From contig JBNKTL010000052.1 in NCBI GenBank assembly GCA_050298055.1, forward strand, positions 1 through 34,211: DNA of 34,211 nucleotides, written 5' to 3'. Below are positions 3,393-26,481 of the stretch, in pieces. Each line of letters starts with the position of its first letter. Positions within the stretch are counted from its first letter, which is position 1. A model generated the notes under the pieces. The model did no database searches and was not told where the DNA came from. It saw only the letters and a list, made by a program, of their open reading frames with translations. The translations under genes were made by a program, and so were the position numbers. The stretch is from Spirochaetota bacterium (lineage in GTDB: Bacteria; Spirochaetota; UBA4802; UBA5550).

Positions 3393-3485
3393 TATATTTT
3401 TTTCGGTTCATTACGAAATGCGGGGATTTATAAAATGGAACCAAGAAGAGATAATGGCACTGTATTCATGCAAAATAAGTTAAAA

Positions 3486-3512
3486 GTCCCCCTCCGGGGG
3501 ATTCAGGGGGCT
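3486..3512. repeat. REP-like GC-rich repeat, single copy
   Basis: GTCCCCCTCCGGGGGATTCAGGGGGCT, closely related to the two copies at 20262-20337. Confidence 0.6.
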
Positions 3513-3520
3513 CCCGAACC

Positions 3521-3688
3521 CTACAAATTCCTGAGCCTGTAGTACTTATCTTCGTACACTGAAATGAGCCAGGACACCTGGTCCAGCCTGTCTCCCTCTT
3601 CTGTTTTTGGCATGGGATCCCTTCTGGTCAGAAATTCCGCTTCTCTCAGGTAAGCCTCGTACATTTTCTCCGATATGATCTCTTCCAT
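3521..3688 (-). CDS. HigA-type antitoxin N-terminal (toxin-binding) domain only, 55 aa
   Basis: Manual translation MEEIISEKMYEAYLREAEFLTRRDPMPKTEEGDRLDQVSWLISVYEDKYYRLRNL*. It matches the I.TE..YE.AL...E.L...P..GT.EGDRL..L..L...YE pattern; no HTH follows. Confidence 0.65.
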   Translation of the reverse strand: MEEIISEKMYEAYLREAEFLTRRDPMPKTEEGDRLDQVSWLISVYEDKYYRLRNL

Positions 3689-3703
3689 TGTAAACCTGCC
3701 AGT

Positions 3704-3961
3704 CTACATTATATAAACAATTCCCGTATTATAGGCGACCTTTGTAAGGAGCCTTACATTGCAGTCCATAACGGTAATAATAATATTCTTCTGAGATACG
3801 GTAACTGTTACGGAGTTCATATTATGAAAATCCTTCATGACATCATCCGGTGTGTGCCACTTCCCCTTCTCCATACGGTCCACAATATCCATGAATTCCG
3901 GACCGTAGTCAGAATGGGTTTTCATGTAGTTATAAACAGCTTTTCGTCCTATGACTCTCAT
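3704..3961 (-). CDS. HigB-family mRNA interferase-like toxin (divergent, possibly nonsense-truncated)
   Basis: MRVIGRK start, W.TP.DV..DF and RL...V.Y..G.VYI motifs; the usual GTHAEYD tail is absent. Confidence 0.65.
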   Translation of the reverse strand: MRVIGRKAVYNYMKTHSDYGPEFMDIVDRMEKGKWHTPDDVMKDFHNMNSVTVTVSQKNIIITVMDCNVRLLTKVAYNTGIVYIM

Positions 3962-5882: not shown

Positions 5883-8800
5883 TTGAGGGGCCCCCCGCAT
5901 ATTTTTTCCTCCAGGGCGAGAATTTTCCCGTAGTCCGGCCGGTGAGAGAATATCCCGCTGCCGCTTTTCCCTTTTACTCCCCGGAGAAAGATATAGAAGA
6001 CCGGCCCCAGGGACTTTTCATAGCTGTAACCCGGTTCCCTGAGAGTGAGGAACCTGTGGAGGGCCAGGGTGTAGAGATGGTACTGCAGGGTGTAGAGGTT
6101 GTTCTCCATCTCCGCGGCGAGAGAGCTGAAACTGTAGTCATCCGGGGTTTTCCCCAGGAAATTGGATTTCCAGTCAACAATGCAGTACCTGTCCCCTGCC
6201 TTAAAGACCATGTCAATGAACCCCTTAAAAAAACCGGCAGACTCCCTGAAATTCAATCCCGATACTTTCATGCTCCTCTCCCCGATCCGAATATCCGAAA
6301 GGACCTCTTCAATGATGCCTGGAGAGACCCTCTCCACGGGAAAACAGAATTCAAGTTCATTGAGCCGGCTGCTTTTCTCAATGCTCCCCAGGGTGAAATT
6401 TTTATCCTGCGGATCAAGGAGAGCATCCGCAAGGTCCTCCAGGCATGCTGCTACCGTGTCCGCCCACAGGGGATCGTACCTGTAATTCCGAAGGACCGAC
6501 TCGATGAGCTCACGGTTCTCCGAAGAACCCGGGTCTCTCAAGTCCGCGTGTTCAAGTATTTCATGAAGAAGGCTCCCGGCAACTGTTCCCCGGGGAAAGG
6601 ACGCCATGCTGTACTCCCGTATGGTCTCACTTTTCTCCCCTGAAGTCCGGGGGAGGTCCCTGTCTTTTCCCTCAAAATCCCCGCTGTGCCGGGAGGAGAT
6701 CAATGAGGAATAGCTGGATATCCGCCACCCGGTATCGATCATCGAGGTAAATTCCCCGCAGTGAAGAGGGGACCGGGTTTCCCGGCTCCTGTATTTCCCC
6801 TTTACCGCTTCAGGCTCAAGTGAAAGAAGTTTTATGGCACCCCCCGAATCTTTCGCAAGGTTTTCAAGCTGGCTGAACATCTTTTTTGAATCAATACCGT
6901 TCATCTGTTCTTCAAGAGAGCCCGCGGGATCGGTTTCATCAATTTCCTCTCCGTGAAGGAGATACGCCGGCGCGGAGCTGTCCGACTGGTTGATCCTGCC
7001 CCAGTAGAAGTAACAGGAGTTGCGGGCCCGTGTGAGGGCCACATACATGAGCCTGATATTTTCCGCGAGCTCCTCCTTTCGCGCTCTCACCCGGTTCTCC
7101 CTTATTCCCGATCCCATGTCCATCACCAGGCTGTTGTCGGAGGAACCGTCATGGAACCGGAAAATCTCACTGCCGCTCCCTGTTTTCACGCCCTCCCAGG
7201 TGAAGGGACAGAATACCACGGGAAACTCCAGTCCCTTGCTCCTGTGTATGGTTATGAGGCTCACCGCGTTGCCGTCCGATTCAAGCCTCAGCTGGTTTTC
7301 TTCTCCCCCGGGTGAATTGATTTTTTCCGCGAGCCATTTGATGAGCCCCCGGGGTCCGGGCCTCTCCGCGGTCTCCTTTCTGTGAAGGAGCTCGGCAATA
7401 TGGAGAATATTTGTCATACTCCGTTCCCCGAAGGGAGAGGAGAGTATGGCGGACCGGGTCCCTTCATTGGCCATGAGCCTGTTAAACATGGTTATGAACC
7501 CGTTCTTTATCCAGAGCCGGGAGTATTCCTGGAAGCTGCTCATGACACTGCTCCAGAGCTCTTCGTCCCGGTTAAGCCGGAGGATCCTGTTCCCGCTGTA
7601 CCCGAAAAGCGGCGTGGAGAGCGCTGTTTTTACCAGCACTTCGCTTGAAGGTTCCGCCACCGCGGAAAGAATATGCATAATGCTTACTGCCTCCTCAGAG
7701 GAAAAGACGCTCTCCGTTCCGTAAAGCACACCCGGTATTCCCAGGACGGAGAGGTAACCCTGAATTTTCACAGCCTGGTTCTTCTTCCTGACCAGTACCG
7801 CGATATCCTCCGGTTTCAGGGGCCTCTCCCCGATAAGGGTCTTTCCCCCTGAACCTGAATCAACAAGCCTGAAGATCTCCATGGCAACAGAGCGGGCAAT
7901 GAACTCCTCGGCCTCAGTCTTCAGGATAAACTTCTTTTCTTCTTTTTGAAAAAGAGAGTTTTTCATATAACAGAGTGTAAATGCCGGCAGCTCCCTCCCC
8001 TCTTTCGTGAGTTTTTTATGTTCCCGCTCCGGGGTATCAACCGGGGGAAAATCTATCTCCCTGAAGATAAAGGGAATTTTTCGTCTGCCGAAGAGGGTAT
8101 TGCACGCGGAAACGAGCTTTTTCCCCGACCGCCAGTTTTTGTCCAGGGTATAGCTGTTTTTCACTGACTTCAGGGCGTTCAGATACGCGAAGATATCCCC
8201 CCCCCTGAAGCCGTATATGGCCTGCTTCGGGTCCCCGATGAGGAAGAGTATGGAATCCCTGCCGAAAAGCTTTGAAAATATCCTGTACTGGGCGGAGTCC
8301 GTGTCCTGGAACTCATCGATGAGAGCCGCCCTGTATCTCTTTCTCACGGCCCCGGCCAGGGGTGAACCGGCGCCGCCCTTCAGAGAGCGGTCCACCTCCC
8401 CGATGAGGTCATCATATAACCGGGTGTTGTACTTTCTGTTATATTCAGCCTGTTCCCTCTCTGCGAAGCGGAGCAGGTCCCCCCTGATAAAGAGGAGATA
8501 TTGATGAAGGATTTCCTCCAGGGAGGAATATGAAGCCATGAAGTCCCCGGCGAGATCAAAGTACCTGTGTACCGGTGCCGCGGCGCCTTTATTCAGGCTT
8601 TCGGACAGGGTGCCGGCGGCGAATTTTCCGAAATGTTCCGGAAGGTCCATGGGGTTGCTCCCGGCCATAAATATCCGTGTGTCATGGATAAGATCATCAA
8701 TGGTCCCTTTCCTGTATTTAGACCTGCTGATGGCTTTATCATGGATGATGATATCAATAATTTTATCACTCTCCTTTTCCCATGTCTCTTTCAGTGTGTT

Positions 8801-9451
8801 GAAGGTCTCTGACAGGCCGGCCTCGGCGCTTCGGGTATCCGGCTTCTCAACAGGTGGCACGATCCTCACTTCCGGACCGCCGGGACTTTTCATGACAAGT
8901 TCAAGGAGGGATGACCTGCTGACTTTGGAATCAAGGAGGTACGCGGCGGTTATTTCGGAGGCGGTTGATATATTGATCCTCCAGTAATCATCAACGATCC
9001 TCCCCAGAATTTCATTCCTGTCGGTGACCAGTTCGGTAGTGTAGATGCTTCCGCTTTCAAATGCGTTCTCAAGGAGTATCCCCTGGCAGAAGCTGTGGAT
9101 GGTTGATATGGACGCCCTGTCGAAGTTTATGATTGCCTCTCTCAGGATATACTCCGCCTCCTTCCGGTTCCCACTTTTTTCCGTAATCCTCTGAAGCATC
9201 CGGTCGCCGGTACCGGTTTCACCGCCGATAATCTTCAGCGCGTCCCGGAGCAGGTCCCGTATCCTTCCCCGGAGCTCTTCCGTGGCGGCAATGGTGAAGG
9301 TCACCACAAGTATCTCTTCCACCTTGAGCTTCTTTTCAAGGAGGAGTCTCAGGTAGAGGCCGGTAATGGCGTAGGTCTTTCCCGTTCCTGCGCTGGCCTC
9401 AATGAGGTTCGATCCCTCAAGGGGACAGTTCTCTATTTCAAAGCTCTTCAT
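5879..9451 (-). CDS. recB: Exodeoxyribonuclease V beta subunit RecB
   Basis: IEASAGTGKT, LIDEFQDTD, IGDPKQAIYGFRG, TIHRSKGLEF, YVALTRA, nuclease domain GFIDMVF...IVDWKSN. Confidence 0.97.
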   Translation of the reverse strand: MKSFEIENCPLEGSNLIEASAGTGKTYAITGLYLRLLLEKKLKVEEILVVTFTIAATEELRGRIRDLLRDALKIIGGETGTGDRMLQRITEKSGNRKEAEYILREAIINFDRASISTIHSFCQGILLENAFESGSIYTTELVTDRNEILGRIVDDYWRINISTASEITAAYLLDSKVSRSSLLELVMKSPGGPEVRIVPPVEKPDTRSAEAGLSETFNTLKETWEKESDKIIDIIIHDKAISRSKYRKGTIDDLIHDTRIFMAGSNPMDLPEHFGKFAAGTLSESLNKGAAAPVHRYFDLAGDFMASYSSLEEILHQYLLFIRGDLLRFAEREQAEYNRKYNTRLYDDLIGEVDRSLKGGAGSPLAGAVRKRYRAALIDEFQDTDSAQYRIFSKLFGRDSILFLIGDPKQAIYGFRGGDIFAYLNALKSVKNSYTLDKNWRSGKKLVSACNTLFGRRKIPFIFREIDFPPVDTPEREHKKLTKEGRELPAFTLCYMKNSLFQKEEKKFILKTEAEEFIARSVAMEIFRLVDSGSGGKTLIGERPLKPEDIAVLVRKKNQAVKIQGYLSVLGIPGVLYGTESVFSSEEAVSIMHILSAVAEPSSEVLVKTALSTPLFGYSGNRILRLNRDEELWSSVMSSFQEYSRLWIKNGFITMFNRLMANEGTRSAILSSPFGERSMTNILHIAELLHRKETAERPGPRGLIKWLAEKINSPGGEENQLRLESDGNAVSLITIHRSKGLEFPVVFCPFTWEGVKTGSGSEIFRFHDGSSDNSLVMDMGSGIRENRVRARKEELAENIRLMYVALTRARNSCYFYWGRINQSDSSAPAYLLHGEEIDETDPAGSLEEQMNGIDSKKMFSQLENLAKDSGGAIKLLSLEPEAVKGKYRSRETRSPLHCGEFTSMIDTGWRISSYSSLISSRHSGDFEGKDRDLPRTSGEKSETIREYSMASFPRGTVAGSLLHEILEHADLRDPGSSENRELIESVLRNYRYDPLWADTVAACLEDLADALLDPQDKNFTLGSIEKSSRLNELEFCFPVERVSPGIIEEVLSDIRIGERSMKVSGLNFRESAGFFKGFIDMVFKAGDRYCIVDWKSNFLGKTPDDYSFSSLAAEMENNLYTLQYHLYTLALHRFLTLREPGYSYEKSLGPVFYIFLRGVKGKSGSGIFSHRPDYGKILALEEKICGGPLK

Positions 9452-9452
9452 A

Positions 9453-12400
9453 TCAGGTCCTCTCCGCCGCCTTGAGGACCGGGCCGAAGACTCTCAGGGA
9501 GAGCTCTTTGAATTCCTTCATGTTTATCTCTTCAATTTTAAAACAGCGGGAATAATAGGGATCATCAAGGTCTCCCCTGCTGAACCGGGAACCTGCCAGG
9601 GACGCGGCCGCCGCTTTCAATGCCTGGTCTTCCGGTTTCCCGGAGTTAATTTTCTCCGCGTAACTGTATGAGGTATCGGCAAAAAAGGGAAGAGGCTCCC
9701 TGGTCCCCTTCCGGTAGAGGGAAATGAGGTCTTTCAGTATCCCCCGGGGATCATTAACACTCCCCAGTTTCCAGGTCCTCTTTTTCCTCACAAGGACCGT
9801 TGTCCGGGGCAGACGTTCTTCCCCCGCAGAGGCCGCGGCCAGGTGCTCGATCCAGGGACGGATAAAGTCCCGTCCCCTGCTCTCTCCATACCTGTAGTGG
9901 AGGATGATGTCATCACGGGCCGTGGTGATCATTCCCTGGACACGGGTCCCCTCAAGATCAAAGGAGAGCTCCACAGGTTCCAGGGGATCTCCTTTCATCA
10001 GCCCCCTGACCCTGCTGCTGAACCGCGCGATGCCCGGGAGCATCCTGCTGCACCGGACATCCCCTGGTGTCCCATGGGGAAGGAGCCCCTCATGTTTTAC
10101 TCTTTCAAGAATATCATGGGAGGTTGTTCCGGTTAAAAAGCTCTCAAGAAGTTCAGACTCCAAAAAGTATCTTTCCAGGCCTTCAATTTCGAAGGGTTCG
10201 CTGTTCTCCGGAATTAATGTCCTGTCCCTGTAATCCAGACCGATGATCCTTTCCAGGAGATAACGGGGGGGAGAGAGAAAAAAACTGACAAGATCGTCTA
10301 TCTGAACCACTCCGGGTTCATTGTCAGGATCCAGGGGCCGGCTGATAAAGGGACTTTTGTCAGCTTCGGGCTTCCGGGAGCGGAGCGCCTTATAGTTTTC
10401 TGCGGAATAGCTGATGAAGGGGCCCTCACCGGTAAAGTACCGGCTGCTGAAGGACTGCAGCGGGTGTTTGAAGAAAAAGCTGCCGGCAGTACTCTTTACC
10501 GCTCCGGGGAAAAGGTCTGCAAGAAAATCCATAAGCTCGGACACAACGATTGAAGGAGATATCTCGCTGTTGTCCTGTATATCCTGCCCCGTATAGCTGA
10601 TATAAAGCTTCTCCCGGGCAGAAAGGATCGATTCCAGAAAGATATACCTGTCCTCATCACGGAGTGAACGGTCCCCGCTCCGGGGATTTTTTTTCATCAG
10701 GTCAAAGGGCGATTCAGAATCTGTCCGGGGAAAGAGATCGTGGTTCATCCCTATCATGCAGATAATCCTGAAGGGAATACTCCTCACCGGCAGTACCGAG
10801 GCAAGGGTTACCGCTCCGGAAACATACCTCCCCGGAGGGTTGTCCCCTTCCATAAACCCCTCCAGGTACTCGCGCACTATCCGCAAATCGATCTCTTCGT
10901 GAAAACCTGAGGCCTCCTGGCAGGATGAAAGGTGACCGATCCCCCTGTTCAGAGATCTCAGCCGGGGATCATCTTCCGAGGAGAGATCAATGAAACTCTC
11001 CAGGATATAAGCAAGGTGCCGGCTCCACTCTTCTAAAGAATGGGGGACTTTGAAGATCTCTGCGGTTTTCATGACAGATTCAATGAAGCTGTTGAACCTG
11101 CCGAAGAGCCGGGCGTCTTCACCCTCAAGGAGGTCCAGGGGGAGTATCCCGCCGGGAAGTTCACCGCCTGCATGGGGCAGTGAATAGCCCAGGAGAATCC
11201 TTTTAATTCCGTGGAGCCAGCTGTTTTCCTCAACAGGAGGCAGGCCGATCTCCTCCCGGTAACCGGGTCCCAGCCCCCACCGTATATTGCCGCTCTTTAC
11301 CCAGGAATTTATCTTCTCAACGCAGCCCGGGGAAAAACCGAACCTGCTGCTCACCGGCTCCGATTCAAGAAGGGAGAGAACACTTCCCGCTGAATACCTC
11401 TTCTTCTCAAGTTCACAGATTGAGAAAAAGACCGCCGCGGCCCCGTTTCCGCCCCCTGATCCCCTGTCATTAAATGCCACGGGAATTTTCATCTCCTCCT
11501 TTTCCGGCGAGGAGAATACGGCATCTATGAATGGCGCGTAGTTTTTCATATCAGGGGTAACAATTAAGATGTCACGGGGCTTGAGGTCACTCTCACTGTT
11601 AAACCGGTGGAGGAGAAAGTCATACAACACCTCTGCTTCCCTCATGGGGCTGTGGCATGAATTAATGATGAGAGAACCGTCACCAGGAAGGGCATCCCCT
11701 TCTCCGCCGGGGATTGTTTCATCCTCAAGGTTCAATATCCCCGATTGTACCCGTTTTAACAGGGTGCCCCTGCCGGGAGGGCTGTAGAGTTCAACCGGTT
11801 CAGTCTCATCATCCACAATGGCCCGGAAAAAGTCCCTTCCCGCCCTGCCCATTGATGAGAGGAGGCTGTTCCCCGATTCCAGGTGAAGGTCTTCCTCGGG
11901 TATCCCCCTGCGAACCGCCTTCCCGGACTTCTTTATTATGGCGCCCCGGGGCATGATATGGCTCCAGAACTGGTTTGTGGGACTGAAGATATAGAGGTTG
12001 ACCTCAATGTGCCGGGCAAGCATCCGCATGATATCCAGGTGGTAGGGAGGAAGATACGATATGCCGAAAAGATTGATCCTGGCGGGAAGTTCATATTTCT
12101 GAAAGAAACCGGGATCATTGACCTCATTTGCCAGTTTCTCCCTGAGAGCGGGCGGGTGCAGGATTTCCTCGCGGGAAACCGTTCTTCTCCAGAGTTCTCC
12201 CTGCCAGCCTCCCGAACTCCCCCTCTCCCATTCCAGGACCATCTCCGGTCTGAAGGTCAGGTACTGGTCAAAAAGATCAGCTAATTTCCCGGCAAGTTGA
12301 AACAGCCGGTGACGGGACGGGTCTCCGGAGAGGTATGCTTTAACATCAGCGAATTCTCTCCTCTCAAGGTTTTCCGGGACCTGTTTCATCAATTGCCACC

Positions 12401-12677
12401 TGAGGAGCTCCCTGTCCATGTACCGGGAATCGGGAAGTTCCGGGTAGAGTTTCTTGAAAAGGTAGTGGTTAAACCGGTTGGGCAGCATGTAGCTGAAGTT
12501 TGACCAGACACCCAGTTTGTCCGCAAGCTCCAGGGTCAGCCACTGGGTTATCCCCTGGCTCTGGGTTATGATCAACTCTGTTTCAAAGGGACCGCCGGGA
12601 CTCTCTTTGAGGTTTTCCGATAAGCTCCCCGCAAGCTTCTCCAGCATGTTTCCCGTATAGATATTAAATCCGGCCAT
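9453..12677 (-). CDS. recC: Exodeoxyribonuclease V gamma subunit RecC
   Basis: LADLFDQYLTFRP, CHSPMREAEVL, RSIPFRIICMIGMN, EDRYIFLESILSAR, HPLQSFS. ATG at 12677 is preferred over the TTG at 12716. Confidence 0.96.
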   Translation of the reverse strand: MAGFNIYTGNMLEKLAGSLSENLKESPGGPFETELIITQSQGITQWLTLELADKLGVWSNFSYMLPNRFNHYLFKKLYPELPDSRYMDRELLRWQLMKQVPENLERREFADVKAYLSGDPSRHRLFQLAGKLADLFDQYLTFRPEMVLEWERGSSGGWQGELWRRTVSREEILHPPALREKLANEVNDPGFFQKYELPARINLFGISYLPPYHLDIMRMLARHIEVNLYIFSPTNQFWSHIMPRGAIIKKSGKAVRRGIPEEDLHLESGNSLLSSMGRAGRDFFRAIVDDETEPVELYSPPGRGTLLKRVQSGILNLEDETIPGGEGDALPGDGSLIINSCHSPMREAEVLYDFLLHRFNSESDLKPRDILIVTPDMKNYAPFIDAVFSSPEKEEMKIPVAFNDRGSGGGNGAAAVFFSICELEKKRYSAGSVLSLLESEPVSSRFGFSPGCVEKINSWVKSGNIRWGLGPGYREEIGLPPVEENSWLHGIKRILLGYSLPHAGGELPGGILPLDLLEGEDARLFGRFNSFIESVMKTAEIFKVPHSLEEWSRHLAYILESFIDLSSEDDPRLRSLNRGIGHLSSCQEASGFHEEIDLRIVREYLEGFMEGDNPPGRYVSGAVTLASVLPVRSIPFRIICMIGMNHDLFPRTDSESPFDLMKKNPRSGDRSLRDEDRYIFLESILSAREKLYISYTGQDIQDNSEISPSIVVSELMDFLADLFPGAVKSTAGSFFFKHPLQSFSSRYFTGEGPFISYSAENYKALRSRKPEADKSPFISRPLDPDNEPGVVQIDDLVSFFLSPPRYLLERIIGLDYRDRTLIPENSEPFEIEGLERYFLESELLESFLTGTTSHDILERVKHEGLLPHGTPGDVRCSRMLPGIARFSSRVRGLMKGDPLEPVELSFDLEGTRVQGMITTARDDIILHYRYGESRGRDFIRPWIEHLAAASAGEERLPRTTVLVRKKRTWKLGSVNDPRGILKDLISLYRKGTREPLPFFADTSYSYAEKINSGKPEDQALKAAAASLAGSRFSRGDLDDPYYSRCFKIEEINMKEFKELSLRVFGPVLKAAERT

Positions 12678-12824
12678 AGCGGTGAATAGTGAAAATCCAA
12701 TGCGACATAAAATCAACTGTTTTTTGCCGGGAGTGTTTTATATTTTGAGATTTTCCGGGTCTTTAGGAATGGTTTTATGTTTATCGAGGCTTTGATCTGA
12801 CCGGTTAATGAGCGTTCAACATAA

Positions 12825-12915: not shown

Positions 12916-14268
12916 TTATGGCCATGTGGGCTCCGTATTTCCCGTACCCCATCCAGTTGAAAAATTTGTGTAACTTAAAACACTGCCCACATCCCATCCG
13001 CTGAGATCATGACCTGAAAAAGCGGAAGCGTTATAAAACATATATTGGATTAATGTGACATTGCCTACATTCCAGGAGACTATGTCCTGATTGAAAGATG
13101 AGGCGCTGTAGAACATATAGCTCATATTACTAACAGTGTCCACAATCCAGGTGCCGATGTCTTGATTAAATGAAGAGGCGCCACGAAACATACTGTTCAT
13201 AGATCCAACACTGCTTACATCCCAGGAACCGATATCCTGATTGAAAGCGGACGCGTTATAAAACATACTGCTCATATTGGTAACACCGCTCACATCCCAG
13301 GAACCGATATCCTGATTAAAAGCAGATGCGCCATAAAACAGAGAAGCCATAACGGTTACATTGCTCACATCCCATGAGCTTATATCCTGATTAAAAGCAG
13401 ATGCGCCATAAAACATACGGCTCATATCGATAACACCGCTCACATCCCAGGAACCGATATCCTGATTAAAAGCAGATGCGCCATAAAACATATAACTCAT
13501 GTCTGTGATCCTGCTTACATCCCATGAGCTTATATCTCCATTAAAGGAAGTAGCGTTACAAAACATATGCATGGTACTTGTAACATTGGAAAGATCCGGG
13601 GTATCTGTGGCGTTGTATGCGAGGTTTGTACATCCGTAATAGGCGGCATTCATTCTTCCCCACACTATGGAACCCCAGTGCTCTATTGTTAAGATCTTTT
13701 CTTTGTCCCCGGTATTATCAAAATTTATCCCCGGAAAAGTCCCCCATATACTTACGGTATATGTTCCGATAGATGCATAAGTATGGGTTATTGATCCGGT
13801 AACATTGGTATCGGAAGTTCCGTCTCCCCAGTCTACGGAGTAATCGTATGTTTCACCGCCGTATACCGGGATGGTTACCTGGTCATCTCCCGATATACCG
13901 GTATTGTCCGTTTTCCAGGTGGTGATAAAATCATTCCAGATGGCATAGAGTACAAGATCTCCGCTTCCCATGGTGAAGCTCTCTCCCTCTTTGTATGTGC
14001 TACCGCTTCCGTCTGCCGCGGTGTTCCATACAATATGACTGCTGCCGAATTTTATAAGGTTCCCCGTATTCCCCAGTACGGTAACACTCTGACCTGCCTC
14101 ATATCCATTGCTGTCAACGGGTACAGTCCCTTCTGCAGCCCCATTACCGTCGTAGATGACAGCATAACCGCCTCCTCCACTATCACTGCAGCCTGAAAAG
14201 ACCGCGGCGGAAAGGATAAAAACGAATATTAAATAAAAAAACTTTTTAATTAAATTTTTTCTTTTCAT
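12916..14268 (-). CDS. BspA-like/DUF285 surface lipoprotein with a Listeria-Bacteroides-type repeat and a PKD-like domain
   Basis: Lipobox FSGC; YDGNGA..G.VP ... WNTAADGSG..Y ... LYAIW; VDWGDG..THTY; about eight 25-aa repeats MFYGASAFNQDIGSWDVS.V; SD AGGAG. Confidence 0.92.
   Translation of the reverse strand: MKRKNLIKKFFYLIFVFILSAAVFSGCSDSGGGGYAVIYDGNGAAEGTVPVDSNGYEAGQSVTVLGNTGNLIKFGSSHIVWNTAADGSGSTYKEGESFTMGSGDLVLYAIWNDFITTWKTDNTGISGDDQVTIPVYGGETYDYSVDWGDGTSDTNVTGSITHTYASIGTYTVSIWGTFPGINFDNTGDKEKILTIEHWGSIVWGRMNAAYYGCTNLAYNATDTPDLSNVTSTMHMFCNATSFNGDISSWDVSRITDMSYMFYGASAFNQDIGSWDVSGVIDMSRMFYGASAFNQDISSWDVSNVTVMASLFYGASAFNQDIGSWDVSGVTNMSSMFYNASAFNQDIGSWDVSSVGSMNSMFRGASSFNQDIGTWIVDTVSNMSYMFYSASSFNQDIVSWNVGNVTLIQYMFYNASAFSGHDLSGWDVGSVLSYTNFSTGWGTGNTEPTWP
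13070..13595 (-). repeat. 75-bp coding tandem repeats (DUF285 units)
   Basis: CCTGATTAAAAGCAGATGCGCCATAAAACA recurs exactly at 13311, 13386 and 13461, with more diverged units on either side. Confidence 0.9.
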
Positions 14269-18224: not shown

Positions 18225-19697
18225 ATGAAAAAAGAAAAAATATCAGACAACATATCATCTCAATTCAGGGCTTCCGGGATTGAACTTTCGAAAGAAGAAC
18301 TTGCACGCTTTACACAACTCTACAAACTCCTGGTTGAACATAACAGCGAGCTTGACCTTACCCGGCTGAAAACTGCCGATGATATAATCATAAAGCACTT
18401 TATCGATTCGGTCTACTTTTTAGACAGGGTTTCAATCCCCTCTCCCCTGCTGGATATTGGCACGGGGCCGGGATTTCCCGGTGTACCCATAAAAATAATG
18501 CGGCCGGAGATACGCCTCATACTGGCAGAACCGCGTCACAGGAGAGTCACTTTTCTTAAAATGCTGACGGAAGAACTGGTTCTTGAAGATGTGGATATCT
18601 ATCCGCACCTTGTTACCGACATATCGTTCTTTGATGCAAACAGCGTCATAACCAGGGCCCTGGAACCGGTAGATGAGACACTGACCAGGGTCAGCCATTT
18701 TCTTCCCCGGGGGGGACTTGTCTACTTCATGAAGGGCCCCGATTCAGGGGACGATGTGGGAAAGCTTTCCCCGCAAAACAACAGGCTCTTCAGTCTTGAG
18801 GACGATATCAGCTATACTCTTCCGGGAACATCATACGAGAGAAGGCTTGCCGTTTACAAATGCATTCAGAAAAGTTTCAGAAAAACCTTCAGGATCATGA
18901 AAGATGAAAATATGAGTGAAGGAACCGCCGTCACATCCGGTGAAAACAGGAGGTTTAAGCAGCTTAAGAAGCTCACGGGGACCGATGGTATAAAAAAACA
19001 GGGAAGAGTCATTGTTTCAGGAAAAAAGATCATTGAAGAGCTTATTGCTAACGGTGAAATCACCAGGGAGGAGATGATTATCTTTGACGGGTATATTGAA
19101 AAGGATGAAAAATTCAATGATATTATCAATTCCTTCAGTGAAGCGGGAAAACTCCTGGTGATGAAAAAATCCCTCTATAACCAGCTCGATACCATAAAAA
19201 CGGAAATGCCTCTTTTAATTGCAGGTATCCCCGGGATCACGGAATGGGATTATACAATTGAGAAGGGGTGCACACTCATCGTCCCCTTCCAGGACCCGGT
19301 AAATACCGGGAGCATTATCAGGTCTGCCGCGGGTTTCGGGATTGAGAAGATCATCCTTCTGAAAGAAGCGGCCAACCCATTCCATCCGAAAGCGATCAGA
19401 TCATCAGGGGGATATGTCTTCCGCATGAAATTTTTCAGGGGCCCTTCCATACATGAGATAGGCGTTTATGCCGAAGAAAAAAACCTGGAGATTGTGGCCC
19501 TCCACAGTGAAGGAAGAGACATACGGAATTTTCAATTCCCTGAGAAATTTTTGCTTTTGCCCGGACTTGAAGGTGAGGGAGTACCCGCTGAATTCAGGAA
19601 ACAATCCGTATCCATTCACTTGAGCCAGGGTGTTGATTCCCTGAACGCATCTGTTGCCGCGTCAATCTTTCTGTACCAGTGGGCGGGACAATCCTGA
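18225..19697 (+). CDS. rsmG: 16S rRNA m7G527 methyltransferase RsmG fused to a TrmH/SpoU-family RNA methyltransferase
   Basis: N-terminal half: HFIDS, LLDIGTGPGFPG, ITRAL, MKG. C-terminal half: QDPVNTGSIIRSA, GLEGEG, VDSLNASVAASI. One continuous 490-aa frame. Confidence 0.9.
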   Translation: MKKEKISDNISSQFRASGIELSKEELARFTQLYKLLVEHNSELDLTRLKTADDIIIKHFIDSVYFLDRVSIPSPLLDIGTGPGFPGVPIKIMRPEIRLILAEPRHRRVTFLKMLTEELVLEDVDIYPHLVTDISFFDANSVITRALEPVDETLTRVSHFLPRGGLVYFMKGPDSGDDVGKLSPQNNRLFSLEDDISYTLPGTSYERRLAVYKCIQKSFRKTFRIMKDENMSEGTAVTSGENRRFKQLKKLTGTDGIKKQGRVIVSGKKIIEELIANGEITREEMIIFDGYIEKDEKFNDIINSFSEAGKLLVMKKSLYNQLDTIKTEMPLLIAGIPGITEWDYTIEKGCTLIVPFQDPVNTGSIIRSAAGFGIEKIILLKEAANPFHPKAIRSSGGYVFRMKFFRGPSIHEIGVYAEEKNLEIVALHSEGRDIRNFQFPEKFLLLPGLEGEGVPAEFRKQSVSIHLSQGVDSLNASVAASIFLYQWAGQS

Positions 19698-19698
19698 T

Positions 19699-20238
19699 TT
19701 AATCACCCTCAAATTCACAGAGGGCGAACATTGCGTATCCTGCACCGGCAATTGCCTCTCTTCCGCCCACATCGGGAAGGTCCACAATAAATGCCATTTC
19801 AACAACCTTACCGCCGATTTTCTCTACAAGTTTTGCCGCAGCAATAGAGGTCCCCCCTGTTGCCAGGAGGTCATCGATGACAAGGACCCTGTCACCCCTC
19901 TTTATGGCATCGGTATGGATTTCAATTTTATCGGTCCCGTATTCCAGCTCATACTCGTGTGAAACTGTTTCCGAGGGGAGCTTTCCCGCCTTTCTCACCA
20001 GGACGAATCCCTTGCCGAGTTTATATGCAAGTGCAGCACCAATGGTGAAACCACGGGCTTCAATTCCGGCAATAATGTCGATATCTTTACCGCCGTATCT
20101 CCGGGCCAGTTCATCCACAACAAGCTTCAGACCTTCCGGGTCCTGTATGAGTGTGGTAATGTCCCTGAAAATAATCCCCTCTTTGGGAAAACCGGGAATG
20201 CTTCTGATTTTTGATTTAATTTTTTCCAGGTTGTTCAT
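19699..20238 (-). CDS. apt: Adenine phosphoribosyltransferase
   Basis: FPKEGIIFRDIT, GIEARGF, VRKAGKLP, YELEYG, VIDDLLATGGT. Confidence 0.98.
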   Translation of the reverse strand: MNNLEKIKSKIRSIPGFPKEGIIFRDITTLIQDPEGLKLVVDELARRYGGKDIDIIAGIEARGFTIGAALAYKLGKGFVLVRKAGKLPSETVSHEYELEYGTDKIEIHTDAIKRGDRVLVIDDLLATGGTSIAAAKLVEKIGGKVVEMAFIVDLPDVGGREAIAGAGYAMFALCEFEGD

Positions 20239-20261
20239 TGATAATTTCCTTTTATATTATT

Positions 20262-20337
20262 AGCCCCCCATCCCCGGAGGGGGCGTAAGATTCTCATCCG
20301 AACACTCTCTTGTGCCCCCTCTGGGGGTTAGGGGGTC
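20262..20337. repeat. Inverted doublet of REP-like repeats (REPIN-like)
   Basis: AGCCCCCCATCCCCGGAGGGGGC (20262-20284) and GCCCCCTCTGGGGGTTAGGGGGTC (20314-20337) are inverted relative to each other around a 29-nt spacer. Confidence 0.7.
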
Positions 20338-20400
20338 TTCCTTTGCGGGTTTTCAATTTAGATTTTATTTCCTTTCAAAGGATGTCAACTTAAAATTATT

Positions 20401-22002
20401 TCACTGGAGAAAATCAAGGGGAAGGATTGAAGCGACACGTATCTTACTGCCGGGAATAAATCCAACCTTAACATGAACATATTTGATTACACCTTCCCTG
20501 TTGATGAACTTAAAGCTGTATTCATCAGGGATACTCTTATCAACACCTCTTTTGTCGTGATAGTTTTCCATCCTTTGGATTTCATCTACAGCGGCAAAAT
20601 CAGACCATTTCATTCTGCCGATTATCTCTTTTCGGGGATAACCGCTGATATCTTCAAATCGTGAATTACACATGGTGATAATCTTGTCGTCACCATAGAT
20701 TATTGTTGCCGTTCCCGTATTTTCGAAGACGATCCTGTACTTCTCCTCACTTTCATTAAGATTTTTTTCCGCAAGGTCTCTCTGGTTTTGAAGCTCCTTT
20801 TTATTCTGATTTATATTAACCAGGTAAAGAAGAATAAGCGTAAGAATAATAATAGATGAGGAAACGAGAAGGGAGATGCCTGCGGGATAATGCCCGGTTA
20901 TCTTCTCCAGGGTAAACACCTTCCACCCGGGAAGAATGATCTCTTTTTTCGAAAGACAGTATCTTCTCTTTTGTATTGAAATTTCATCACCCAGAAGAAG
21001 GGGGGATAGTTCCGTAAGTTTTTTATCGGCAAATTGCTTACTGTTATGGATTTTTTCAAGCCTGTAGGGCTCAATGGGCAGTGCTGCCTTATAGAGCCAC
21101 CCCTTCCTGTTGGAAATAAAAACAACGCCGTCAGGAGAGAGTACACCGGCAATATCTTTGAACTCACCTATAATATTATCAATATTTCCAATCCCCATCT
21201 TAATAACGGCGACACCATGGGGCTCCTCTCCTTTTTCCCGGTATATGGGATAGCTGTAGTAGATCCCCCTTTCATGCGTGGTAGTACCCAGGGCAGCATA
21301 AACAGAGGGGCTATTGTTCATTGCATCTGTAAAATAAGGCCTGAACCTGAAGTTTTTTCCGGTAAGCGTTTTACCGCTATCATAAGGAGAACATGCAACA
21401 ACCGTACCGTTTTTATCCATTATATAGACTATTGACGCGTTAAAAAGTGCTTTAACAGTATTGAGAAGCATAAGGTGCTGCTTCTCATTCTTAATATTCA
21501 ATTCGTTTCTGAAGCTTGTTACAATCTGGTGATTTGCAATAATTTTCGAAGCATATTTAATATTGCTTATTCTGGAATTAATCTTTTCTGCAATTCTTCT
21601 GATATTTTTTCGAAACTCATCCTGATTGCTTTTTTTATGCTGATTGTAAATCAAGAGGTTCGCAGTAAATAAAGATGAGAGCGCAATAATAATTATGAGA
21701 ATAAACTGCCATTTTAAACTGCTTACAAAACGTCCTCCGGGCAGTTTCATATATTTTTTTTCTTTAACCGGGGCCTCAGATCTTCCCTCGAAAAGAAGTG
21801 AATCCACTGATATACTGAAGATTCCGGCAATTTTTATCAGAGCATCAACAGAAGGACTTGATTTCCCTGTTTCATAGTAGCTTATCATCTTGCTGTCAAC
21901 ACCGATTTCATGAGCAAGCCCCTTCTGCGTGAGCCCTTTCTCCTTGCGAAGTTTTTTTATCATTTTGCTTAGATATGCAGATGAACCGTTCATATCTGAC
22001 AA
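20401..22002 (-). CDS. XRE-HTH / TM / DctB-like dCache / TM / PAS protein
   Basis: IKKLRKEKGLTQKGLAHEIGV...ISYYETGKSSPSVDALIKIA (XRE); TM; GKNFRFRPYF...YAALGTTTHERGIYYS (DctB-like Cache); TM; EEKYRIVFENTG... PAS. No kinase or other output domain. The start may be the ATG at 21993. Confidence 0.88.
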   Translation of the reverse strand: MSDMNGSSAYLSKMIKKLRKEKGLTQKGLAHEIGVDSKMISYYETGKSSPSVDALIKIAGIFSISVDSLLFEGRSEAPVKEKKYMKLPGGRFVSSLKWQFILIIIIALSSLFTANLLIYNQHKKSNQDEFRKNIRRIAEKINSRISNIKYASKIIANHQIVTSFRNELNIKNEKQHLMLLNTVKALFNASIVYIMDKNGTVVACSPYDSGKTLTGKNFRFRPYFTDAMNNSPSVYAALGTTTHERGIYYSYPIYREKGEEPHGVAVIKMGIGNIDNIIGEFKDIAGVLSPDGVVFISNRKGWLYKAALPIEPYRLEKIHNSKQFADKKLTELSPLLLGDEISIQKRRYCLSKKEIILPGWKVFTLEKITGHYPAGISLLVSSSIIILTLILLYLVNINQNKKELQNQRDLAEKNLNESEEKYRIVFENTGTATIIYGDDKIITMCNSRFEDISGYPRKEIIGRMKWSDFAAVDEIQRMENYHDKRGVDKSIPDEYSFKFINREGVIKYVHVKVGFIPGSKIRVASILPLDFLQ

Positions 22003-22024
22003 AATTACACTTCAAATAATAAAA

Positions 22025-22103
22025 TCAAGAAAAATTTAGGCATCTATTGTAATTTTTCTTGACTTTATTTACAATATATTCAATGAGTAATTTACAATAT
22101 ATT
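22025..22103. promoter_or_regulatory. Operator-like repeats between the divergent regulator and the TAXI gene
   Basis: 12-bp perfect IR TCAAGAAAAATT (22025-22036) / AATTTTTCTTGA (22051-22062); 14-bp direct repeat ATTTACAATATATT at 22067-22080 and 22090-22103; inverted half-site TATTGTAA at 22045-22052. Confidence 0.6.
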
Positions 22104-22174
22104 AGATACTATGATATAGATTTCCAACTTATAGTTATGCATAAAACTGAAAAAGAACATAACTTTCCTCCTAT

Positions 22175-22224
22175 AAAATGCCTCAGAATGCAATTTTTTC
22201 CTTTTGCACTATGAGGCATTTTTT
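22175..22224 (+). terminator. Hairpin with U-tract upstream of the TAXI gene
   Basis: AAAATGCCTCA (22175-22185) / TGAGGCATTTT (22212-22222) with inner TGCAA/TTGCA pairing, ending in a T-run. Confidence 0.45.
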
Positions 22225-22326
22225 CATAAATTTCAATACACCGGGGAAAATATATCGTTGAAATAAAAAATAAAATAGATTACTATTCATAAAATTTAGC
22301 CTAATTATTATATTTGGAGGGATTAA

Positions 22327-23298
22327 ATGCTTAAAAAACGATTTATCTATCTTTTTGTTATTCTGCCTCTGGTTGCAGGTATCGTATTAATCCAGTCATG
22401 CAAAAAGACTGGGGGAAATACTTTCAGGTTTGCAGGTGGACCTTCAGGGGGGACTTTTCAGTATTATGCAAGTGCTGTAACTACCCTTTCCAAGGATGTG
22501 AAGGATATCAAGGTACTTGCCAGCTCATCAGGGGGATCAATTGAGAACATCAGGCTTACCGATTCAGGCAAGGCCCAGTTTGCAATTGCCTATTCCGGTC
22601 ATGTTTATGCAGGACGCAATGCCATGCTCAAGAATGACACTAAAAAGTATATGAATGTACTTGCACTTTCATATCTTTATGGTGCTCCCGCGCAGCTTGT
22701 TGTAAACAAATCGCTTGGCATAACCAAAGCCAAACAGCTCAAGGGCAAGAGAGTGGGCATCGGAAATGCCGGTTCCGGCGCAGCGGCAAACGCCACAATC
22801 TTCTTCACAGAGCTTGGTATCCTCAAGGATATGAAAGCTGAAAACCTCGGTTACAGGGGTGCAGGCGACGCTTTAAGAAACGGACAGCTTGATGCCTTCT
22901 GGGTATTTGCAGGTTTCCCAAATGCTTCTGTACTTGAAACCGCTCTTCAGAAGGATGTTGTTCTTCTCAATGTCTATAACGACGCAGAGGAAGCAGGCAT
23001 GTTTAAGAAATACCCATACTTCGAAAAGGTCATCATTCCCGCCAACACCTACAAGGGACAGACTAAACCAATTGTTTCTTTCCAGGATGCGGCTCTCTGG
23101 GTAGCCAACAAGGATGTTCCCGCAGATGTTGTTTACAACCTGTTAAAGCTCGTTTTCAGCGAAAAAGGTCTTAAGCACATGGTTACGACCCATAAGTCCG
23201 CAAAAGCAATGGGCATAAAATCAGGGATCAAGGGTATCGTTACACCTCTCCATCCCGGTGCCGAAAAGTTCTGGAAGGAGCAGGGAGCTCTGAAGTAA
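22327..23298 (+). CDS. TAXI-family TRAP transporter solute-binding lipoprotein
   Basis: Lipobox IQSC, GGPSGGTF, SSGGSIENI, LKGKRVGIGNAGSG, PLHPGAEKFWKE; SD GGAGG. Confidence 0.95.
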   Translation: MLKKRFIYLFVILPLVAGIVLIQSCKKTGGNTFRFAGGPSGGTFQYYASAVTTLSKDVKDIKVLASSSGGSIENIRLTDSGKAQFAIAYSGHVYAGRNAMLKNDTKKYMNVLALSYLYGAPAQLVVNKSLGITKAKQLKGKRVGIGNAGSGAAANATIFFTELGILKDMKAENLGYRGAGDALRNGQLDAFWVFAGFPNASVLETALQKDVVLLNVYNDAEEAGMFKKYPYFEKVIIPANTYKGQTKPIVSFQDAALWVANKDVPADVVYNLLKLVFSEKGLKHMVTTHKSAKAMGIKSGIKGIVTPLHPGAEKFWKEQGALK

Positions 23299-23376
23299 AG
23301 AGACATCAATAAATAGATAATAAGATGTTTTCTTATTTTTTTAGTTAATTTGCCAATATTTTTCAACAGTAAACTT

Positions 23377-23410
23377 GCTGCAGGGCGAACAACCCTGTGC
23401 GTCCTGCAGC
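23377..23410 (+). terminator. Intercistronic stem-loop
   Basis: GCTGCAGGGCG ... CGTCCTGCAGC followed by TTT, between the binding-protein and permease genes. Confidence 0.5.
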
Positions 23411-23434
23411 TTTATATTGTATGTGGAGGAGAAA

Positions 23435-25171
23435 ATGTACCAAAAACTCAACAGGTTTGAAAAATACGCTTTTGATATTCTTTCCCTGCTCTTTGTGGGA
23501 TTCTATTCTTTTTCGGCAGTTCTCAAACCTGCGCCAACACAGTATCACAGAGGTGTTTACGTCCTTATAACATATATACTTGTATTTCTCCTCTATAAAT
23601 CGAAAAACAGGATACTCAGGGTTCTTGACTATATACTGATGGCTGCTTCAGCGGTTACAGTCATATACTGGATAGCAAACTTCGAAGCAATCAATTTCAG
23701 GACCGGCGCGGAAACACTCACAGACAATATCATCAGTGTCATAGGTGTCCTCATCGGAATTGAAATTGCGCGAAGGGCTGTGGGTATCGTCTTTGTAGGT
23801 ATCGGCATACTTATGCTTATATTCGGTGTATACGGCCAGTACTTTCCCGAGCTTATCGCGCATCCCGGTGACAGTTTTCTTGCTATCTGCACGAATATCT
23901 TCTTCAAGGAAGATGGAGTTTTCGGGATCATGGCAAATGTCCTTGCAACATATGTTGTACTTTTTGTCTTCTTTGGCGCTTTTCTTGAAAAATCAGGCGC
24001 ACAGCGCTTCTTCATAGACTTTCCCCTTGCAGCAGTGGGGCATAAAATCGGCGGGCCGGCAAAGGTCTCCGTAATAGCCAGCGGGCTCATGGGATCAATA
24101 TCCGGAAGCGCCATTGCCAATACGGTATCAACAGGAACATTTACCATACCGCTCATGAAAAAGGCCGGGTTTAAACCGCATGTTGCAGGGGCAATCGAGC
24201 CCGCAGCATCAATTGGGGGTATGTTTATGCCGCCAATAATGGGGGCCGGCGGTTTTATTATGGCAGAGCTTACCGGTATAAGCTATTCCTGGATCATGCT
24301 TGTTGCCCTCTTCCCCGCAATAATGTACTTCTTCAGTGTTTTTGTCATGGTCCATTTCGAAGCGAAAACGAATAATATACGAGGCGAAAAGAGCAAAGAG
24401 GATATAAAACAAATTTTAAAGAAGGAATGGTTCTACATTCTCCCTCTTGTTGTTATAACAGTTCTCATCCTCATGGGATTCTCTATCGGTTTCTGTGCTG
24501 TCATGGGAATCGTTGCATGCCTGGTCATAAGCTGGTTCAGGGTTGAGACACGAATTGGATTTCATGACATCCTGGAGGCATCACGCGCAGGGGCGGAAAA
24601 CAGCCTGAAGATCGGATCAACACTGGGAATTATCGGCATCATTATCGCCATGCTGACTTTCAGCGGACTCATTCTTACATTTGCCGATATCGTCATTCAG
24701 CTTGCAGGCGGTCACCTCTGGCTTACCATACTCCTTATTGCCCTGGCATCTCTCATTTTGGGTATGGGCGTACCGGTTACAGCGGCGTATCTTATCACCG
24801 CTGTTGTCGCCGTTCCTGCGCTTACCGAGCTTGGAGTAAGCCCTATTGCCTCACACATGATTGTCTACTGGCTTTCCCAGGATTCAAACATATCCCCTCC
24901 TGTTTGTATCGCCGCTTTTGCCGGTGCGACCCTGGCAAAGGCCAATATGTGGAAGACGGCATTCAAGGCATTTAATTTTGCCAAGTTCCTCTATCTTGGG
25001 CCCTTCCTTTTCGCATATATTCCCGCATTTACCCTCCAGGGAACCGTAGTTGATATCATAAAGGCTTTTGTCCTTATTGCCCTGGGCACATTTCTCTTCG
25101 GATATCTGCTCAGTTTTCACTGGCTGGGTTATCTTAAAGCGAGATTTGGCAGAGCAGGAGAGAGTGTATAA
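23435..25171 (+). CDS. TRAP transporter fused permease (4TM/12TM, DctQM-like)
   Basis: GGPAKVSVIASGLMGSISGSAIAN, LGMGVPVTAAY, SNISPPVCIAAF; SD GGAGGAG before the ATG at 23435. Confidence 0.95.
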   Translation: MYQKLNRFEKYAFDILSLLFVGFYSFSAVLKPAPTQYHRGVYVLITYILVFLLYKSKNRILRVLDYILMAASAVTVIYWIANFEAINFRTGAETLTDNIISVIGVLIGIEIARRAVGIVFVGIGILMLIFGVYGQYFPELIAHPGDSFLAICTNIFFKEDGVFGIMANVLATYVVLFVFFGAFLEKSGAQRFFIDFPLAAVGHKIGGPAKVSVIASGLMGSISGSAIANTVSTGTFTIPLMKKAGFKPHVAGAIEPAASIGGMFMPPIMGAGGFIMAELTGISYSWIMLVALFPAIMYFFSVFVMVHFEAKTNNIRGEKSKEDIKQILKKEWFYILPLVVITVLILMGFSIGFCAVMGIVACLVISWFRVETRIGFHDILEASRAGAENSLKIGSTLGIIGIIIAMLTFSGLILTFADIVIQLAGGHLWLTILLIALASLILGMGVPVTAAYLITAVVAVPALTELGVSPIASHMIVYWLSQDSNISPPVCIAAFAGATLAKANMWKTAFKAFNFAKFLYLGPFLFAYIPAFTLQGTVVDIIKAFVLIALGTFLFGYLLSFHWLGYLKARFGRAGESV

Positions 25172-25353
25172 AACCTTAAATTTTAAATTCTATATTTTGA
25201 ATGTTGAATTTTAAATTATTCCTTGTGCGCAAGAAAATCTATTTGATTAATATATGAGTTACGCTTAATGTAACATAAGATCTTATTATCATTCTTATTT
25301 AGAGGAAGTTTCATGATATTGAGGCTTCCTTTTATCTTTTAACCGGGCATGGC

Positions 25354-26481
25354 ATGAAATTTAAAAAGATTTTTTTCACCGTAATAATTTTCTCATTTAT
25401 CATAACAATAAATAGTATCTCACAGGGAAACGACTTCCTCCATGAGACAGGAGAACCCTCCCCGCTGAAAAAAAATGACCAGCAGTCGCCGGTACATGAA
25501 CTTCAGACATCTATCCACAACATCTATGAGCTCTACCGTGATTCCATTGTCTACATCAGCACTGAAAGGACCATGAAGATGCAGCGTCAAAATCCTTTTA
25601 TGTTCGATCCTTTTTTCAGAGATTTTTTCGGCGGGAGCAACCGGGGCGGCAGAACAAGAAAACTGAGGGGGCTCGGCACCGGTTTTATCATATCAAGTGA
25701 CGGATATATCTGCACAAACCATCATGTGGTAGCACGGGCCGATAACCTCACAGTACGAATTAATGAGAAAGAATATCCTGCACGGATAATCGGTTCCGAC
25801 CAGCTCACGGATATTGCGCTTCTCAAGGTTAATACCGGGGAGAAGCTAAAACCGGTACATTTCGGCAATTCCGATGATGTAAGGATTGGGGATTTTGTCG
25901 TTGCAATCGGGAACCCCTTCGGGCTGGATAAGACCTATACCTTCGGGATAGTCAGCGCAACAGGGAGGCGCCATATTGACCAGTTGGGGAATTCACATAT
26001 TCAGACAGATGCTTCTATCAACAGGGGGAATTCCGGCGGACCGCTGATAAATATTGACGGCGAGGTTATCGGGGTAAACAGGGTGATCTATACAAAGTCG
26101 GGCGGCAGTATCGGTATTGGTTTTGCCATATCTATAAATACCGCGCGAAAGGCGCTGGTCCAGCTGAAAAAGTACGGGAAGATTAAACGGGGTTACATCG
26201 GAGTTCAGGTCGCTCCTCTTCATGAATCAATTGCCAGAAAAATAGGACTGAATATTAAAAGCGGTGTATACATCAGGTCGCTGATGAAGGATGGACCTGC
26301 TGCAAAATCAGGTTTAAAGATAAAGGATGTCATCCTGGAAATAGACAGTATGAAAATAAAAAACTACAGGGACCTAATAAAGGTAATAAGCGAGAAGGAG
26401 ATTGGAAGGAACGTGTCAATTAAGATCTGGAGGGACAGGAAAAACCTCATGTTCACTGTTCCCGTTGCAGAACGGCCCTGA
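25354..26481 (+). CDS. htrA: HtrA/DegQ-like serine protease with one PDZ domain
   Basis: Catalytic triad contexts TNHHV, DIALL and GNSGGPL; signal peptide; C-terminal PDZ. Confidence 0.93.
   Translation: MKFKKIFFTVIIFSFIITINSISQGNDFLHETGEPSPLKKNDQQSPVHELQTSIHNIYELYRDSIVYISTERTMKMQRQNPFMFDPFFRDFFGGSNRGGRTRKLRGLGTGFIISSDGYICTNHHVVARADNLTVRINEKEYPARIIGSDQLTDIALLKVNTGEKLKPVHFGNSDDVRIGDFVVAIGNPFGLDKTYTFGIVSATGRRHIDQLGNSHIQTDASINRGNSGGPLINIDGEVIGVNRVIYTKSGGSIGIGFAISINTARKALVQLKKYGKIKRGYIGVQVAPLHESIARKIGLNIKSGVYIRSLMKDGPAAKSGLKIKDVILEIDSMKIKNYRDLIKVISEKEIGRNVSIKIWRDRKNLMFTVPVAERP

Follow-up and report, generated by a model that had tools for sequence, protein, structure and literature searches.

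Transmembrane transcription regulators (TTRs) carry a DNA-binding domain and transmembrane (TM) helices in one chain, and a catalogue of 50,302 of them (Demey et al. 2023, PMC10269533) reports the HTH_3 domain in 4,523 and the dCache_1 domain in 936, with Spirochaetota being enriched in such proteins. All 60 of the 936 dCache_1 members that were examined are about 740 to 820 residues long and have the order dCache_1-(HAMP)-HTH_18 with a C-terminal AraC output, and the other 876 could hold the architecture described here (PMC10269533). A further source reports 300 dCache_1 proteins with transcription-factor outputs (PMC4822843). Here, we analyze a regulator gene (positions 20401 to 21993, minus strand) in a stretch of 34,211 nucleotides, called the window, from a Spirochaetota bacterium (GenBank assembly GCA_050298055.1, contig JBNKTL010000052.1), where it stands divergent from and head-to-head with the genes of a tripartite ATP-independent periplasmic (TRAP) transporter of the TAXI family. 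The regulator falls under the sequence definition of a TTR, with an HTH_3 DNA-binding domain and at least one TM region (two helices by hydropathy and structure model). Unlike the dCache_1-AraC proteins, it has no HTH_18 domain, its XRE-type helix-turn-helix (HTH) head is N-terminal to the first TM helix (TM1), and the chain ends in a bare PAS domain.

ToxR, CadC, and TcpP are built, like the regulator, from a cytoplasmic N-terminal DNA-binding head, a linker, a TM helix, and an outer sensor, but they are single-pass activators with a winged HTH and have neither a Cache domain nor a returning second TM helix (TM2) with PAS. Another membrane regulator, BcrR, activates from inverted repeats. BcrR of Enterococcus faecalis and Clostridium perfringens resembles the regulator in being a membrane-bound one-component protein with an N-terminal XRE domain, and it is reported to control an adjacent transporter (PMC3435297, PMC3968067); by length and domain content, which were compared without alignment, it is a bacitracin sensor of 207 residues with no Cache or PAS domain, against 533 residues for the regulator (PMC3435297, PMC3968067). 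A sequence-only reading of the window had held that membrane-tethered regulators use winged HTHs, which is too narrow in view of the XRE-type BcrR and the 4,523 HTH_3 carriers in the TTR catalogue (PMC10269533). On the sensor side, the kinases DctB, MifS, and AauS (PDB IDs 3BY9 and 3E4O) have the same TM-dCache_1-TM sensor and pocket motifs as the regulator. DctB, MifS (2-oxoglutarate), and AauS (aspartate and glutamate) are described as one clade using the same residues, whose members respond to C4-dicarboxylates, 2-oxoglutarate, or acidic amino acids and regulate the transporters of these compounds (PMC8694187). In contrast to the DctB kinases, the regulator has no HisKA, no HATPase, and no neighboring response regulator, and its output is an HTH on TM1. 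Membership tests place the regulator outside the DctB kinases, the RstR repressors, and the dCache-AraC group; it is DctB-like outside and of the RstR/BcrR type inside. The novelty lies in this combination and its order and not in the class of membrane regulators, and we found no description of an XRE-dCache-PAS combination among the publications listed in our searches.

The open reading frame (ORF) is intact and encodes 533 residues from a TTG codon (22002 to 20401, minus strand). The ATG at 21993 (M4) is the likely start, giving 530 residues, because the database copy of the protein (P0001) has 530 residues and a homolog (P0166) starts at the same place; residue numbers given here follow the 533-residue ORF, and the AlphaFold2 model was built for the 530-residue form. 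An RstR-type XRE HTH is followed by a TM helix, a DctB-type dCache_1 domain, a second TM helix, a complete PAS domain, and the stop codon. The Pfam matches are HTH_3 at residues 15 to 67 (E 3.7e-14, 52.9 bits against a cut-off of 23), dCache_1 at 125 to 363 (E 1.6e-14, 54.5 bits, above the cut-off), and PAS at 420 to 517 (TIGR00229 PAS at 417 to 519), and hydropathy gives two hydrophobic segments, with peaks at 100 to 119 and 376 to 397, which flank the Cache domain. On the minus strand of the window, the DNA-binding domain (residues 11 to 71) lies at 21790 to 21972, the basic linker (72 to 99) at 21706 to 21789, TM1 (100 to 119) at 21646 to 21705, the extracytoplasmic Cache domain (125 to 363) at 20914 to 21630, TM2 (376 to 397) at 20812 to 20877, the TM2-PAS linker (398 to 419) at 20746 to 20811, and the cytoplasmic PAS domain with its short tail at 20404 to 20745.

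The AlphaFold2 model, built from a 69-row alignment, has a mean predicted local distance difference test (pLDDT) value of 89. It consists of a five-helix XRE head, a low-confidence linker (pLDDT under 50 at residues 71 to 86 of the 530-residue form), a TM1 that runs into the Cache helix alpha-1, a TM2 that continues as a single helix into PAS, and a PAS domain that is complete up to its last strand. A homodimer prediction for residues 1 to 430 reached a score of 0.04, the mark being 0.42, and speaks neither for nor against a dimer. The chain stops after PAS with no HisKA and HATPase_c transmitter, likewise in the ortholog P0002, and the 162 bp between the stop and apt are free of kinase remnants in all three frames. 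A scan of 26 window ORFs, in which every neighbor of the gene was covered, gave no response regulator. The kinase-less order HTH-TM-Cache-TM-PAS that had been read from the letters of the DNA is borne out by Pfam, hydropathy, the model, and the lack of a downstream remnant.

Two artifacts are ruled out: a frameshifted or split kinase, by the clean 162 bp before apt and by the ortholog ending at the same place, and, for the regulator and its link to the TAXI gene, a misassembly, by a single contig from another sample of the same study (run X2) that covers 20332 to 24241 with 3 differences and no gaps (run X1, which may be the source sample, was left out of this support).

The Cache domain carries the motifs FRPYF (residues 220 to 224) and GTTTHERGIYYS (239 to 250), both of which align to Vibrio cholerae DctB. 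Its residues of DctB type are Y193, R221-x-Y223-F224, G239-T242, R245-G246-x-Y248, and K268, with Thr242 in the place of the Ser of the DctB G(S/T)xS loop. R221 and Y223 are invariant in 69/69 aligned rows, and G239, G246, and K268 are conserved in 68/69; we take these residues to line the succinate pocket. A PDB sequence search with the Cache part gives only three matches, all of them DctB chains (3BY9 with E 7.6e-21), and the top five matches of the fold search are also DctB, with a TM-score of 0.84 on the target, so the DctB-like identity claimed earlier stands. Kinases such as P0003 and P0139 have the whole TM-Cache-TM-PAS part as their front end. Because DctB, MifS, and AauS share one clade and its residues, the ligand class of the regulator is expected to be carboxylates, and direct sensing of a carboxylate appears likely. 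No publication containing the RXYF motif was found among the matches listed. A few short DctB-type Cache proteins of 306 to 328 residues (P0160/P0278 and P0267, also P0164 and P0188) are too short to hold an output domain and may represent either gene fragments or a group of receptors without output.

The closest relatives of the HTH head are stand-alone RstR-family repressors of about 123 residues, with 54 to 61% local identity for P0300 to P0302. RstR of CTXphi is said to bind its operator cooperatively as a tetramer. Three of the four stand-alone relatives tested score above the cut-off of the RstR family profile (NF041951) and the fourth reaches 79.6 against 80, whereas the regulator itself, with 68.4 bits, stays below the 80-bit cut-off and matches profile positions 3 to 74 of 108 only. 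What it does not have is the C-terminal helical part of about 45 residues found in RstR-type repressors; the membrane sensor stands in its place. Some of the stand-alone relatives adjoin toxin-antitoxin-like genes. On sequence comparison, the ancestry of both halves can be traced, and the best reading is that the regulator was made by fusion of the 5' part of an RstR-family repressor gene with a DctB-like kinase front end, the kinase module being lost. A search among proteins of near length gave no further fusion fragment in the 120 listed of 151 matches, judged by coverage and Pfam columns with 11 sequences read. Record 7 of run X1, from a low-depth second organism, is 81% identical to the HTH region only (window 21794 to 21994); it may represent either an ortholog or a repressor of the stand-alone kind and was not used as evidence. 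A TTTT-TTGATTTT stretch is common to the DNA upstream of the regulator and upstream of stand-alone RstR-like genes; it was likewise not used as evidence.

The fusion recurs outside the window. The protein P0121 differs from the regulator by one residue, and P0002, with 79% identity along its full length, shares all domains, the HTH included, and extends three residues further at the C-terminus. A third lineage is represented by P0166, a metagenome protein of 222 residues with 46% identity, which aligns from the HTH through TM1 into the Cache domain over 222 columns without a gap, so that the HTH-TM-Cache junction and the linker length are preserved; it ends inside the Cache domain, probably cut by its 1,745-bp contig. 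The sequence-only reading would have been contradicted by closest homologs without the HTH or running on into a kinase, and what is found is that P0002 keeps both the HTH and the C-terminus and P0166 keeps HTH-TM-Cache.

Conservation along the chain is uneven. Compared with P0002, the HTH is identical at 63/68 positions (93%), the linker at 12/28 (43%), the distal pocket at 92/102 (90%), the proximal module at 75/99, PAS at 96/114, and the last 22 residues at 22/22 (100%). The Fisher test gives p 4e-7 for HTH against linker and p 0.003 for HTH against the rest. The linker is only 25% identical in P0166 and has an equal length in all three proteins, being variable in sequence yet conserved in length. 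In these comparisons, the profile is that of purifying selection acting at either end of the chimera, and the fusion is neither a misassembly nor a one-off. A tree of the Cache N-terminal half (39 rows, P0121 left out) places the three fusions on one side of a branch with a weak support of 70/88, which is present in 66% of the bootstrap trees, and a single origin of the fusion is likely.

Upstream of the regulator, the intergenic region at 22003 to 22326 contains an operator-like array. A span of 61 bp holds three copies of the 11-mer TTACAATA(T/G)AT, one of them inverted (22042 to 22052, minus strand) and two direct (22069 to 22079 and 22092 to 22102, plus strand), which would be the binding site of the HTH. 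A genome-wide count with at most one mismatch gives 253 sites but only 3 close pairs, 2 of which are in the array; the remaining pair is weak and lies on another contig (C2). For the array, 0.07 occurrences are expected in the window, by a pattern that was chosen after being seen; as a fairer control, the direct-plus-inverted pattern is found in 4/888 intergenic regions, the array's own region included. Between the array and the TAXI gene lies a strong hairpin or inverted repeat at 22175 to 22222 with U-runs on both sides (folding z -5.1 and -4.6), which is terminator-, attenuator-, or operator-like, followed by a promoter-like site, TTGAAA-17-TACTAT, at 22258 to 22286 on the plus strand, just upstream of the TAXI gene and identified by consensus match. 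Rfam has no match in 19900 to 25500, the hairpin included. The array is local and not a random occurrence, yet autoregulation could be all that it serves, as the hairpin and the further promoter-like site intervene toward the transporter.

The head-to-head TAXI-TRAP genes that had been recognized earlier are confirmed by two profiles. The first gene (22327 to 23298, plus strand) encodes a TAXI-family TRAP solute-binding protein of a GGPxGGTF subgroup (TIGR02122, 228 bits, over the cut-off), probably a lipoprotein. The second gene (23435 to 25171, plus strand) encodes a TRAP fused 4TM/12TM permease (TIGR02123, 553 bits, over the cut-off), whose start is probably the ATG at 23435 rather than the TTG at 23375 from which its ORF is open. 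For VcGluP, the reported glutamate determinants are Tyr45 and Gln93 (PMC11574862). Mapped by eye, the SGTY and VQND/VQSD of more distant TAXI proteins are replaced in the window protein by GGTF and AYSG, which suggests that the GGPxGGTF subgroup is without both determinants. Three of the five closest TAXI homologs (47 to 49% identity; loci L063, L065, and L067) have FAD-linked oxidases within two genes, with the domains FAD_binding_4 and FAD-oxidase_C in each and Fe-S domains in two; from this Pfam set we read them as being of the lactate/glycolate dehydrogenase type. Because these oxidases neighbor three of the five homologs, there is a hint that the substrate of this TAXI clade is a 2-hydroxy acid of the lactate or glycolate type.

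Taken for itself, the regulator is very probably a functional DNA-binding regulator. We tentatively propose, at a little short of even confidence, that it is a carboxylate-sensing, two-helix membrane transcription regulator that controls its own promoter and a TAXI-TRAP importer of the same acid. A membrane dimer would be held by Cache, TM2, and PAS, replacing the lost oligomerizing helices of the repressor, and a small carboxylate (a C4 or C5 dicarboxylate or a 2-hydroxy acid) would bind in the membrane-distal Cache pocket. Succinate is reported to open the alpha-1 coiled coil of DctB, moving the N-termini about 20 A apart, with alpha-1 connecting to TM1 (PMC4077058). As in DctB, the ligand would splay the alpha-1/TM1 pair; because the HTHs hang from TM1, which is joined to alpha-1, it could re-space the two HTH heads and alter their grip on the triple motif at 22042 to 22102, with TM2 and PAS serving as a fixed clamp. 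Repression without ligand and release with ligand would be the most likely outcome, at the regulator's own promoter and probably at the divergent importer too. PAS had earlier been suggested as a second input, for which no evidence was found, and a structural role seems at least as likely. More doubtful is the wider proposal of a conversion from a two-component to a one-component system, in which Cache splaying would be read N-terminally as operator release at the TAXI-TRAP promoter, with PAS as a clamp or transporter contact. Control of the transporter by the regulator is plausible and unproven; that the TAXI genes are its target is, in our estimate, slightly favored. In favor of the link are the head-to-head position, the carboxylate-type sensor beside a TRAP importer, and the fact that the regulator and the two TAXI-TRAP genes together fill the interval between apt and htrA, which is only 97 to 313 bp long in four relatives (G002, G004, G011, and G022) and contains none of the three genes in 12 such intervals fetched.

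Several observations weigh against this proposal, and most of them concern the transporter. Most of the latter also speak for a first alternative, in which a functional carboxylate-responsive regulator acts on its own promoter and on distant targets, and the TAXI operon is a chance neighbor in an insertion-prone slot with an insulated promoter. The array is nearer to the regulator start (49 to 109 bp) than to the TAXI start (225 to 285 bp), and the hairpin and the separate promoter-like site could insulate the transporter. Moreover, the inverted motif pair is at the same time two overlapping, opposed promoter-like sites (22047 to 22075, plus strand, and 22074 to 22046, minus strand) and may simply be two overlapping promoters. 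The apt-htrA interval is occupied by various other genes in further relatives, so its content varies and separate insertions into this slot are possible. In the 7 to 17 kb fetched around kinase-type Cache loci, none of 8 has a TRAP gene nearby, and none of 8 related TAXI loci has a regulator-type Cache or HTH, so that a Cache-TRAP linkage is seen in none of 16 related loci. Against this alternative, the genome contains no second cluster of three sites and hence no evident regulon at a distance, the carboxylate sensor fits in function with the TRAP carboxylate importer opposite it, and none of the relatives searched has a close ortholog of either the regulator or the TAXI gene. We consider the alternative unlikely. 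In the same slot, several relatives (L079 to L085) have a secreted-looking protein of 370 to 490 residues, which is absent from that position in the window.

The other counterpoints concern the protein. Its HTH-TM1 linker is variable and of low confidence, which could uncouple the signal, and TM1 of DcuS is reported to make no contribution to signaling (PMC7857512). Only three lineages are known, P0166 ends before it could give a view of the C-terminus, and the HTH tree (29 rows) does not resolve, with P0166 not grouped with the other two (2 changes). A further counterpoint, on the DNA side, is the post hoc choice of the array pattern.

A second alternative would keep the transporter as the target but make the sensing indirect, by a loaded binding protein on the Cache domain or by the permease on the TM helices or PAS, or would release the HTH by proteolysis. 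The response of DcuS is reported to need the transporter DctA or DcuB (PMC7857512), which also weighs against direct sensing in the regulator, and the cytoplasmic PAS of DcuS is tied to DctA interaction, going by the title of a cited paper. PAS and its tail are, besides, highly conserved in the regulator though no kinase follows. On the other side, no part of the sensor is better conserved than the DctB-type pocket, as would be expected for direct ligand binding, and we regard this second alternative as improbable. A flexible linker would suit cleavage, but the htrA gene is found beside apt throughout the family and has no specific tie to the regulator, which argues against the proteolytic variant.

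The fusion might, finally, be a chimera without regulated output, either a repressor that is anchored in the membrane and constitutively active or a fusion, now decaying, of a truncated kinase gene with the repressor of a mobile element. Its extreme rarity fits such an origin: it was found in none of 60 relatives, 121 other genomes of the class, and 400 genomes of the phylum (overlapping sets, with 4 to 24 candidates scored per genome). Of the 298 fetched proteins, 125 match Cache and 4 of those carry an HTH (P0001, P0121, P0002, and P0166, from 3 lineages), most of the others continuing into kinase or other output domains. A search among longer proteins gave no HTH-Cache-kinase form in 23 matches, which is weak evidence, and the ESM Atlas lists no cluster with both the HTH and Cache families among clusters of 50 or more. 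No fusion locus was found in metagenome contigs (four HTH-only loci) or viral contigs (35 HTH-only loci), no plasmid record among 368 covers 80% of the query, and a search of genome contigs for the fusion DNA returned one kinase locus. The HTH stems from a mobile-element repressor family, the nearest neighbors of the fusion's Cache in the tree are the output-less proteins P0160/P0278 and P0267, and hybrid transmembrane regulators are described as often recent and patchy (PMC10269533). Against decay, two lineages that share 79% identity both have an intact frame, in which HTH, pocket, and tail are conserved together, and a third lineage at 46% has the same junction; we regard a chimera without output as improbable, too.

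The window has further features outside this locus. A GC-rich palindromic dispersed repeat resembling repetitive extragenic palindromes lies between the regulator stop and apt (20262 to 20345); it has 73 blastn matches on 43 other contigs of the genome, folds at z of about -4 to -5, and has no Rfam match. At 18225 to 19697, a fused RsmG (GidB) and SpoU/TrmH methyltransferase is encoded, which is matched in 37/41 genomes searched, nearly always at full length, and is therefore a lineage trait. A recC-recB-recD block (4026 to 12716) with 52 to 55% GC in a 44% GC genome adjoins two short HigB-like ORFs (3166 to 3961) and an insertion sequence-type transposase pair (48 to 1567), and is, judged from its sequence, probably acquired DNA. 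A PKD and DUF285 repeat surface protein is encoded at 12916 to 14268, and the host genome has three FlaA genes, which points to a spirochete.

In Cache receptors, the signal normally travels along TM2 to an output at the C-terminus, whereas the only output of the regulator hangs on TM1. The protein is thereby a direct test of whether the opening of the DctB N-termini by about 20 A can switch a DNA-binding dimer. The weight of the finding is limited by the three lineages, the uncultured hosts, and the unproven transporter link, and XRE and dCache membrane regulators have each been catalogued already. The locus provides a handle on the substrate of an uncharacterized TAXI subgroup and a record of a one-component membrane regulator built from a kinase front end and a mobile-element repressor, both parents being identifiable. 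If the proposed mechanism is true, it would amount to a new way of wiring Cache receptors and would offer a single-gene biosensor for an extracellular carboxylate.

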